From: an uncultured Poribacteria bacterium
Lineage (GTDB): Bacteria; Poribacteria; WGA-4E; WGA-3G
DNA: 64,000 bases
Assembly (NCBI GenBank): GCA_951813565.1
Contig: OX638351.1
Coordinates: 576,001-640,000 of the forward strand
Reading direction: 5' to 3'
The position numbers and the translations under genes are program-made. The stretch's first letter is position 1; each line of letters starts with the position of its first letter. Shown here one piece after another: positions 14,803 through 36,504 of the stretch. The notes under the pieces were generated by a model that made no database searches, was not told the origin of the DNA, and saw only the letters and a program-made list of their open reading frames with translations.

Positions 14803-14922
14803 TTTCCGGCGACGACCTACTTTCCCGCGGGGTTGCCCCCGGAGTATCATCAGCGCTGAAGGGCTTAACTGCCGTGTTCGGAATGGGAACGGGTGTATCC
14901 CCTTCGCTATTGCCACCGGAAA
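14803..14922 (-). rRNA. rrf: 5S rRNA
   Basis: Conserved CCCGTTCCCATTCCGAACACGGCAGTTAAGC and GAAAGTAGGTCGTCGCCGG; complementary ends. Confidence 0.95.
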
Positions 14923-14981
14923 GGTGTCCAAAAATATTTGACAACTGTATAGGTATTGAGGAGTCGGTAGAGAAAAATAAA

Positions 14982-17980
<2,999 letters not shown>

Positions 17981-18011
17981 GGTGATATTTTTATTCTACC
18001 GATTTACCCTC

Positions 18012-18031
18012 TCTATACAGTTGTCAAAGAA
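18012..18031 (-). promoter_or_regulatory. boxA-like antiterminator and 5' strand of the 23S processing stem
   Basis: GTTCTTTGACAACTGTATAG; the TTGACAACTGTATAG part is complementary to ~14938-14952 downstream of 23S. Confidence 0.7.
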
Positions 18032-18073
18032 CGCCGCCTATTTTTCAAAAGTGAAACCACTTCTGTTAGGCGA

Positions 18074-18146
18074 TGGAGATGAGCGGAGTTGAACCGCTGA
18101 CCTTCTGGTTGCAAACCAGATGCTCTCCCAACTGAGCTACACCCCC
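18074..18146 (-). tRNA. tRNA-Ala(TGC), CCA not encoded
   Basis: GGGGGTGTAGCTCAGTTGGGAGAGCATCTGGTTTGCAACCAGAAGGTCAGCGGTTCAACTCCGCTCATCTCCA; G3-U70 identity pair. Confidence 0.95.
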
Positions 18147-34581: not shown

Positions 34582-35046
34582 ATGGCAACAGTATCCCTCA
34601 GACCAATCACACAGATAAATTTTCATGAGTGTATCTCCTTAAGGGTCGCTGATAATCAAAAGAAATTTGTTGCCACCAATGTACAGTCTCTTGCCGAAGC
34701 GTTTGTCAATCCAACATATCATCCTTTCGGCATCTATGACTCAGAAGCACATTACCAAGCGAATCCGTCTATGGTAGGATTTACAATGTATGAACTTACC
34801 GACGCAGTAGGCTTCATCTTACGGTTGATGATAGATGAAAAGTTTCAAAGGAAGGGTTATGGTAGGGCAGCAATGATTGAAGTTATACGAAGATTGAAAT
34901 TACACCCAGAGGTTGAGCGGATTGCCACAAGTCATGAGAGGCAAAATGAAGTTGCCGAGCGACTCTATAAAAGTTTGGGATTCGTTGATTGGCAACATGA
35001 ATTAAGGGGTGAAGAGTATTCCGGTGAAAGGTATTTGATTCTTTAA
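34582..35046 (+). CDS. GNAT N-acetyltransferase (spermidine acetyltransferase-like)
   Basis: RLMIDEKFQRKGYGR, N..A..LYKSLGF. Confidence 0.85.
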   Translation: MATVSLRPITQINFHECISLRVADNQKKFVATNVQSLAEAFVNPTYHPFGIYDSEAHYQANPSMVGFTMYELTDAVGFILRLMIDEKFQRKGYGRAAMIEVIRRLKLHPEVERIATSHERQNEVAERLYKSLGFVDWQHELRGEEYSGERYLIL

Positions 35047-35454
35047 CGCTCCCCGTCAAATCCCCATGCTTTAGCTTGTGGGATGTCCACGGCTAACAAT
35101 GTGATGGACAGCACGAAATGTCCAGCGAAAGCGGAATAAAACCCATCGCTATAACGAAATCTATAAAGTTGGTGGATAGCGTCCATATCAAGCCACTGCA
35201 GCACTGCAGACTGGAATGCGTGAGCGGAGGCAACCCCTCCCGAAGTCTAAGGACTTGTCGCGTGGCGTGCCTGGTAGAAAGGGCAGCTATAAAATGGGTG
35301 GAAACAGAGCCAACCCACGACATTGCGAAAAATAAATCAAACGGGCAGGCTTGGCTGCCTAAAGTGGAGTGACAATAAGACGGTGGACGCTAAGCGAAAA
35401 CCGCAGTCGCGAGGAAGCACAAGCCCCTACCTTTAGGTAGTGGGTACCTATGAC
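35047..35454 (+). mobile_element. ORF-less IS200/IS605-type element carrying a structured RNA (omegaRNA-like 3' end)
   Basis: Left hairpin TCCCCATGCTTTAGCTTGTGGGA; right hairpin CCCCTACCTTTAGGTAGTGGG then TGAC; several GNRA-capped stems inside. Confidence 0.65.
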
Positions 35455-35484
35455 GAAGATAGCATCTAACCGTCGGAGGGAATT

Positions 35485-36504
35485 TTGGAATACAGAAGGC
35501 TCGGCAAAAGTGGTCTGAAAGTTTCAGAAATCTGTTTAGGAACGATGACGTTTGGTCATGGTGCAGATGAAGCAGAATCTGAGCGCATGGTACATCTTGC
35601 TTGGGATGCAGGGGTCAACTTCTTTGATACTGCAAATTCGTATGGAGACGGAGAATCAGAGATATTGCTCGGTAAGGCACTAAAAGGCAGACGCCGCGAT
35701 GCTATTGTAGCCACAAAGTTTTTCAATCCGATGAGTAAAGGTCCTAACGATTCTGGCATGTCCCGCGTACATATCCTGCAAGCAATTGACGACAGCCTTA
35801 AACGACTTCAGATGGAATATGTAGACATCTATTATATCCATCACGTTGATACACAAACGCCATTAGAAGAAATGCTACGCGCGTTGGACGACCTTGTCCA
35901 TCAAGGCAAAGTTCGTTACACAGCGTGCAGCAACTACCAAGCGTGGCGGTTATCTGAAGCATTATGGCTCAGCGATTCGCTTAACTTAGCACGATTTGTG
36001 TGTTATCAACCGCAATATAGTCTCGTTGTGCGGGATATAGAACAAGAATTAGTTCCGCTATGTGAATACAAGGGATTGGGCATTGTTGTGTGGAGTCCAT
36101 TAGCGGGCGGATTTCTCTCTGGTACATATAAACCCGGAGAACGCACCCAAGCGGAATCTCGATCAGCGGAAGGTTGGGCGTTCCCACAACGCTATTTTGC
36201 AGCAAACGCAGATGAAACATTAAAAACTCTCTTTGAGATTGCAAAAGAATTGGGGCAGAGTCCCGCACAGACAGCACTCCGATGGGTGCTTGAACAACAA
36301 GCAATGACCTCTGTGATTGTCGGTGCAAGGCACACTACACATTTGCTGGATAATCTTGGTGCCGCTGGTTGGAAGTTAGAGGGAGAAGCACTTGAAAGAC
36401 TAAACGAAGTTTCACATCTACCTGACCGATATCCCGAAGCGATGGAAAAGAATATGCACGAACGTCGGGATAGTGCTGTTGATATGCCGCTTCGCCTTTC
36501 TTGA
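35485..36504 (+). CDS. Aldo/keto reductase
   Basis: LGKSGLKVSEICLGTMTFG, DTANSY, SLKRLQ.EYVD.Y..H, WSPLAGG; TTG start with GGAGG RBS. Confidence 0.93.
   Translation: MEYRRLGKSGLKVSEICLGTMTFGHGADEAESERMVHLAWDAGVNFFDTANSYGDGESEILLGKALKGRRRDAIVATKFFNPMSKGPNDSGMSRVHILQAIDDSLKRLQMEYVDIYYIHHVDTQTPLEEMLRALDDLVHQGKVRYTACSNYQAWRLSEALWLSDSLNLARFVCYQPQYSLVVRDIEQELVPLCEYKGLGIVVWSPLAGGFLSGTYKPGERTQAESRSAEGWAFPQRYFAANADETLKTLFEIAKELGQSPAQTALRWVLEQQAMTSVIVGARHTTHLLDNLGAAGWKLEGEALERLNEVSHLPDRYPEAMEKNMHERRDSAVDMPLRLS

Follow-up and report, generated by a model that had tools for sequence, protein, structure and literature searches.

A gene-less IS200/IS605 element of Candidatus Poribacteria with a predicted omegaRNA scaffold and a conserved multi-helix RNA interior

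Gene-less guide-RNA elements of the IS200/IS605 group are thought to be minimal, consisting of two ends and a scaffold. The locus described here lies at positions 35047-35454 of a 64,000-nt stretch (hereafter the window, the whole of the DNA that was analysed) from a member of Candidatus Poribacteria, which are sponge symbionts. It raises the question of what kind of element holds about 240 nt of structured sequence between its left end and its scaffold, and what this interior could do.

A discrete insertion with ends common to resident tnpB elements

The limits of the element follow from a comparison with empty sites. Four further species of the genus (G008, G012, G014 and G017) lack the element: there, the flank up to 35046 adjoins the flank from 35455, query base 597 being directly next to base 1006, and the empty site of G012 reads directly as ...TTCTTCAA|GAAGATAG... 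As the orthologous flanks are directly adjacent in these four species, the element is a discrete insertion of 408 bp with exact limits at 35047 and 35454 and without target duplication, and its polymorphic presence is a sign of past mobility. The empty sites that an earlier note on this DNA had proposed to look for thus exist as exact counterparts, and the TTTAA, the hairpin at each end and the TGAC terminus are as that note described them. The ends and neighbouring genes, all on the + strand, are as follows.

34582-35046, +: GNAT acetyltransferase gene, upstream and co-oriented, its stop codon inside the TAM
35042-35046, +: TTTAA target and predicted TAM, including the TAA stop of the GNAT gene
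35047-35096, +: left end common to resident tnpB and tnpA+tnpB elements
35062-35082, +: left hairpin CCCCATGC-TTTA-GCTTGTGGG, subterminal, with compensatory changes
35336-35454, +: right end, predicted omegaRNA scaffold
35336-35362, +: last eight tnpB codons and stop (blastn/tblastn against full elements)
35343-35360, +: hairpin P_K, covarying
35369-35373 with 35406-35410, +: stem L, covarying
35424-35444, +: right hairpin CCCCTACC-TTTA-GGTAGTGGG, with compensatory changes
35455-35470, +: predicted guide GAAGATAGCATCTAAC, read from the flank, as suggested by its position and the exact empty site
35485-36504, +: aldo/keto reductase gene, downstream and co-oriented

The genome of origin (G000) contains eight copies of the element at 94-100% identity and one decayed copy; of the eight, five are preceded by TTTAA and two by TTTAG, and the remaining one has a foreign left end. 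The last 119 bases (q290-408) have 29 further matches in this genome, at 91-99% identity and beside TnpB genes, and the left-end bases q3-50 recur at 79-96% identity at distances matching these right-end matches. Seven end-matching elements were cut out, of which five carry tnpB only (1365-1373 bp) and two a Y1 tnpA together with tnpB (1752-1754 bp). Genome-wide, 55 TnpB matches and ten Y1 TnpA matches were obtained, none of them within the window, in agreement with the earlier note. The resident TnpB has OrfB_IS605 and TNB domains, and its closest solved relative is ISDra2 TnpB (residues 27-369, E = 1.8e-43). A single IscB gene (G000:C1:2829138-2830307, - strand, 519-aa frame) is found among the 55 TnpB matches.

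We conclude that the element is a gene-less IS200/IS605 transposon of the type termed PATE or stand-alone omegaRNA element, inserted after TTTAA. It encodes no protein, it has a subterminal hairpin at either end and lacks terminal inverted repeats, its 3' terminus is ...CTATGAC at 35454, it was inserted 3' of a short conserved motif that was not duplicated, and its ends are common to tnpA- and tnpB-bearing elements of the same genome. Being present in multiple copies and having these common ends, it is not the isolated sequence lacking IS605 relatives that the earlier note had named as the outcome speaking against its reading. The assignment of TTTAA as a TAM is a prediction that fits the exact empty sites.

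IS605 elements carry the omegaRNA scaffold at their right end and take the guide from the flank. The right end described here lies in this position, overlaps the 3' end of tnpB and would have its guide beyond the terminus, and the secondary structure of the scaffold is conserved, since P_K, stem L and the right-end hairpin all covary. The proposal of the earlier note that the right end is a TnpB guide scaffold is supported: the last 119 nt match tnpB elements, including eight codons and the stop, and the scaffold stems covary. A guide of 16 nt corresponds to that of ISDra2, and a predicted trans-acting guide RNA would fit a right end shared with tnpB elements. This shared right end starts just 24 nt upstream of the tnpB stop. 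The native scaffold that is kept thus comprises only 119 nt, and if TnpB needs parts located inside tnpB, the RNA of the element would be defective or the interior would replace them.

The interior and its fold

The interior is neither a gene nor tnpB. The longest + strand ORF has 84 aa, and a stop falls within 30 codons of that frame in 21 of 30 homologues, which upholds the statement of the earlier note that no credible ORF exists. Bases q51-q289 gave no blastn or tblastn similarity to full tnpB/tnpA elements, the matches being confined to the ends and the eight codons. Local alignment of the interior with tnpB remained at shuffle level (z at most 1.3, the score of the 3' part being reached by 221 of 500 shuffles), and a covariance model of the fold, R1 (172 positions, 44 pairs), matched no tnpB element in this genome at E <= 1. 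All 16 matches of R1 in the genome at that threshold are gene-less elements. A decayed tnpB, against which the earlier note had wished its reading to be checked, is strongly disfavoured by these results, the tblastn likeness being limited to the last eight codons.

Searches for catalogued RNAs were likewise negative. Rfam searched at curated cut-offs over the whole window gave rRNA and tRNA matches only, and at E <= 10, with this copy and seven distant relatives, no consistent family and no match to an intron or a self-cleaving ribozyme was obtained; the likeness to HEARO or a group I intron that the earlier note had suggested examining was not found for the element. ARAGORN detected no tRNA-like structure. 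Among the papers listed for Poribacteria with TnpB, IS605 or IS200, none contains the name Poribacteria, and the term 'Poribacteria-1' gave no paper. Elsewhere in the window, a 23S rRNA, a 5S rRNA and one tRNA lie together at 14804-18146 (- strand), and no 16S rRNA match was obtained anywhere in the 64 kb; the 16S gene may be unlinked to this 23S/5S locus.

The + strand of the element folds at -136.4 kcal/mol (z = -2.66, none of 100 shuffles being as stable), and the - strand reaches z = -1.49, with nine of 100 shuffles as stable. Frequent G-U pairs and rare A-C pairs identify the + strand as the folded one. Pairing was assessed in three alignments: A1 (27 rows, eight of them from the genome of origin), A2 (30 rows, MAFFT) and A4 (49 distinct rows, including the 553-nt sister family described below). 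In A2, 94.0% of 2011 cells are paired, compared with 34.7-42.6% when the partners are slid by 1-3 columns, and 25 of 68 pairs show compensatory changes, compared with 1-9 in the slid controls and 13.4 +/- 1.9 in shuffles (0 of 500 reach 25); as the rows are related, the shuffle control overstates the signal and the slid control is fairer. In A4, 95.8% of cells are paired and 28 of 44 pairs are compensatory (5-11 when slid), figures that lean towards the structure because the rows were fitted to the model. Overall, about 35-45% of cells are paired in the slid controls. Covariation, the absence of which the earlier note had named as an outcome against its reading, is thus present in both alignments. 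Judged from this comparative evidence, the interior of about 240 nt is a conserved multi-helix RNA with 12 helices; its features are listed below.

35106-35110 with 35119-35123 (unit 35100-35123), +: hairpin P_a, 97% paired, three of five pairs compensatory
35100-35103 with loop bases 35112-35115, +: candidate H-type pseudoknot PK1, nearly invariant
35125-35149, +: helix P_c (GCGA/TCGC) enclosing a variable hairpin, with variants ACGA/TCGT, CAGA/TCTG and GGGA/TCTC
35172-35186, +: hairpin P_alpha, GUGGA-UAGCG-UCCAU, 95% paired, U-A changed to A-U in 6-7 rows
35193-35214, +: hairpin P_E, CCA/UGG base and variable tip, paired in A2 and A4
35215-35225, +: conserved unpaired junction AAUGCGUGAGC, near-invariant columns
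35226-35240, +: hairpin P_F, three of five pairs compensatory, tip tolerating insertions (about 115 nt in the 553-nt sister family)
35243-35256, +: hairpin P_G, AAGUC-UAAG-GACUU, paired in A2 and A4
35258-35328, +: covarying three-way unit in which P_H closes the long hairpin P_H2/P_I and hairpin P_J, the latter with loop AAACAGAG
35273-35280, +: near-invariant loop GGUAGAAA of P_H2/P_I

The three-way unit has compensatory changes in A4 at four of four pairs of P_H, five of ten of P_H2/P_I and all seven of P_J. Within it, bases 35262-35264 pair equally well with 35288-35290 or with 35321-35323, in a mutually exclusive manner, and 35263 covaries with both partners; the two alternatives may represent a switch or a base triple. 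For P_c, only 72% of the A2 cells are paired because the alignment is poor there, and for PK1 the sole compensatory change, seen by eye, occurs in one distant copy (L192). One copy in the genome (G000:C1:4155387-4155803) carries a tandem duplication of 8-9 bases (CACTGCAG...) within P_E.

The pairings suggested in the earlier note had to be revised at several points. The long-range pairing AGCGTCCA/TGGACGCT is present only in the eight own-genome rows among the 27 of A1, and its 5' half sits in a local hairpin that covaries independently. GGCAGC/GCTGCC and AGACT/AGTCT, taken as long-range complements, are both part of local hairpins, and GCGAAAGC, taken as a GNRA-capped stem, is better described as the GCGA strand of the GCGA/TCGC helix.

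Further candidate pairings were considered and rejected. The long-range stems TGTG/CACA, GTT/GAC and TCCAT/GTGGA given by RNAalifold were dropped after comparison, the last because TCCAT covaries with a neighbouring GTGGA and copies with TCCTT keep the GTGGA of the right end. A loop-linker pairing of 35160-35164 with 35274-35278 was unconvincing (79.9% paired; apart from two invariant pairs, the picture is mixed). The loop CUGGUAGAAAG (35271-35281) is complementary over 11 nt, without a mismatch, to the tnpB codons H-S-F-Y-Q of the same genome (position 1044-1054 of C1:185787-187151), and this pairing is kept with G-U in G031, G021 and G006; it was rejected as the cause of loop conservation, since it is lost in G009 and G020 although their loop is unchanged.

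Distribution of the fold and exchange of ends

Of 36 further genomes of the genus, 12 gave query-spanning BLAST matches to the interior at 70-88% identity. The interior was present in 22 of 111 genomes of the family, from three genera; 24 genomes representing three other families of the order gave no match. When 150 genomes drawn from the phylum were searched with R1, matches came from 23 of 99 genomes of the same family and from 0 of 51 belonging to eight other families. A pattern search of genome contigs was loose, returning at least 117 stretches of which eight of the 80 examined match R1, all from Candidatus Poribacteria, and it says little on other phyla. The corresponding metagenome search gave two contigs, both matching R1, and the plasmid and phage collections gave no match. 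Of 25 further loci examined, 21 contain all three sequence profiles made from parts of the fold (m5, mid and m3), with their order unchanged. Across the genomes sampled, the fold is confined to gene-less elements of one Poribacteria family.

The same RNA domain is carried by a second, 553-nt family of gene-less elements, with three full copies and one truncated copy in the genome of origin (G000:C1:4013182-4013734, 925789-926326, 2324388-2324930 and 2996542-2996920). In this sister family, P_F is enlarged by about 115 bases and the 3' part is not that of the 408-nt element; its matches to tnpB elements, which are of another subfamily, are limited to the last 34 bases. Ends have also changed between species: in G031, the last 111 nt of the element are 98% identical to three resident tnpB elements beside TnpB genes, and this right end differs from that of the genome of origin in mid-scaffold while the interiors are 88% alike. 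The right end of G009 is only 79-84% like those of resident elements, showing that the coupling of ends is not universal. The ends thus appear to track resident elements, though not in all genomes, while the interior is kept. Close TnpB homologues (6-38 matches) occur in all five element-bearing genomes checked, and TnpB homologues at 70% identity or above in two of five element-free genomes, both being small samples. One recombinant copy in the genome of origin (G000:C1:2994597-2995004), 1.5 kb from a truncated 553-type copy, has the interior and right end of the 408-type, joined to a left end and a flank motif that are those of the 553-nt family.

Possible roles of the interior domain

The transcriptional context was considered at 26 distinct insertion sites, around which frames were called mechanically. 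At eight sites, an open frame of 100 aa or more in the same orientation ends within 40 nt upstream, in five of these with its stop at the TAM; a co-oriented frame starts within 150 nt downstream at 15; and a convergent frame ending at the right end was found at none. This orientation fits read-through transcription, and strand-specific insertion could also yield the bias. In RNA libraries, the interior is present in contigs of three studies (P5, P7 and P9), where carry-over of DNA is possible, and P8 has only the ends. Some contigs bridge from the flank into the element, and the sole skip is one of 80 nt inside the element, in a single X20 contig, with no skip across the whole element. As assembled contigs, these data carry no ends, strand or level, and uncovered stretches have no weight.

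We propose the following hypothetical scheme, in which (i) a TnpA encoded elsewhere in the genome would move the element as single-stranded DNA; (ii) the element would be transcribed by read-through from the upstream host gene, a step suggested because no sigma-70-like promoter was found inside the element; (iii) the RNA product would consist of the 5' domain, the scaffold and the flank-derived guide; (iv) resident TnpB loaded with this RNA would cut the emptied site (TTTAA and flank), after which recombination would restore the element. The enzymes potentially available in trans are the Y1 TnpA and the resident TnpB described above. Under this proposal, the guide RNA has to be released from a host message and faces competition for TnpB; the 5' domain could shield the scaffold against both the surrounding host message and decay from the 5' side, and this shielding would help it compete with omegaRNAs made in cis by tnpB elements. 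A multi-copy selfish element keeps such a domain only through its own propagation, which favours a role in cis, in folding, protecting or trimming the guide. We place about as much trust as doubt in the scheme as a whole, namely a PATE inserted after TTTAA, whose right 119 bases are the omegaRNA region of resident tnpB elements and whose interior fold probably acts in cis to fold, stabilise or trim a guide RNA for TnpB in trans, and we are less confident of the role assigned to the interior.

Near-invariant loops and junctions over 240 nt are not obviously needed in a mere stabiliser. A bolder version, which we advance tentatively and consider rather improbable, regards the fold as a new class of large structured RNA, a hijacking device on gene-less transposons that recruits, or is processed for, the TnpB of autonomous elements, or that frees the guide from host messages as a ribozyme. 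If so, the element would be a parasite of a parasite that wins the guide-loading race, and the alternative pairings of 35262-35264 could be its switch. We consider it unlikely that the interior is instead part of the TnpB-binding scaffold and contacts the protein directly, replacing the half of the omegaRNA that is encoded in the 3' coding region of tnpB. No more than 24 nt separate the start of the shared right end from the tnpB stop, the scaffold of ISDra2 TnpB extends further upstream, and small motifs of the interior recur by eye in the tnpB 3' end (AAAUG-GUGG...CCAC-GAC and UGGAUA...CCAUA). Nevertheless, the similarity between interior and tnpB is not significant, R1 matches no tnpB element of the genome at the threshold given above, and elements of the 553-nt family combine this interior with another 3' part, a finding that speaks for a generic module.

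A catalytic interior, either self-cleaving to free the guide from the host message or self-splicing in the manner of an IStron so that insertion into an operon is harmless, seems to us very unlikely. It would explain why the fold is large and its junctions and loops are conserved, and why an element with no promoter of its own lies in sense orientation in operon-like contexts; IStrons, as well as a PATE that has IStron ends and no ORF, are known from the material reported in 10.1101/2023.11.20.567912. Against it stand the Rfam searches for introns and self-cleaving families, a helix order of a row of hairpins and one three-way unit that is unlike a group I core, and the base preceding the element, which is A or G and not U. 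The fold might also act in the excised single-stranded DNA, compacting the element or protecting the circle so that TnpA pairs both ends. In work on IS608, the transposed top strand has the same sequence as the RNA, so that G-T wobbles and covariation would fit a role in DNA equally well, and the element has no promoter. We nevertheless rate this reading as highly unlikely: TnpA requires no more than the hairpins at the ends, the purine-rich loops and junctions are conserved and resemble tertiary motifs of RNA, the fold is joined in register with an RNA scaffold, and the interior occurs in RNA-library contigs. A last reading, in which the interior would be filler without function or what is left of a decayed tnpB or of host DNA, strikes us as scarcely credible even though the last eight tnpB codons survive at 35336-35362; it is already disfavoured by an identity of 75-88% across three genera while ends were exchanged, by compensatory changes in 25-28 pairs and by the lack of likeness to tnpB.

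Compared with known systems, the novelty is the large conserved 5' domain, as gene-less omegaRNA elements are already known. PATEs that bear an omegaRNA and stand-alone omegaRNAs that compatible effectors can use in trans have been described in Geobacillus stearothermophilus (Meers et al., preprint, PMC10055086) and by Altae-Tran et al. (PNAS 2023, PMC10691335), as far as the relevant passages of these reports go. As in those passages, the element described here is gene-less, has ends common with tnpA/tnpB elements of its own genome and carries an omegaRNA region; there, function with a TnpB made elsewhere is thought or shown, whereas here it is predicted. In contrast to those elements, which the same passages of text describe without such a domain, about 240 nt of a conserved, covarying and uncatalogued fold lie between left end and scaffold. 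The scaffold at the right end and a guide from the flank are as in ISDra2 TnpB-omegaRNA (PDB 8BF8, 8EXA and 8H1J), to which the resident TnpB is related; in contrast to that system, the predicted guide RNA would come from an element without tnpB that has only the 119 nt of the native 3' region.

In IStrons, a group I intron is fused to an IS605 or IS607 element, and ORF-less derivatives exist, according to the parts of 10.1101/2023.11.20.567912 that treat them. There too, a structured RNA makes up the body of the IS605-type element and lies directly next to the omegaRNA. However, no group I intron match was obtained here at E <= 10, the helix order is different and the resident tnpB elements lack the fold. 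With the IscB omegaRNA (HEARO), the element shares a large multi-helix RNA beside the left end of an IS200/IS605 element; in contrast, it has no Rfam match, and R1 gives no match at the single IscB locus of the genome.

Selection appears to have kept a 12-helix RNA domain on gene-less elements over at least three genera. That the domain was kept while ends were swapped to match local tnpB elements suggests a function at the RNA level in the contest for TnpB; to our knowledge, no such function of a domain of this kind has been described. If the domain raises the stability or loading of guides, it could be transferred onto engineered TnpB guides, and if it is catalytic, it would constitute a new ribozyme class. 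A further gene-less family of 404 nt is found in the same genome (G000:C1:2117809-2118212 and five more loci). It has the same kind of ends, an unrelated interior and its own promoter (TTGACA-17-TATATT), and the identity of five of its copies indicates that it was recently active.
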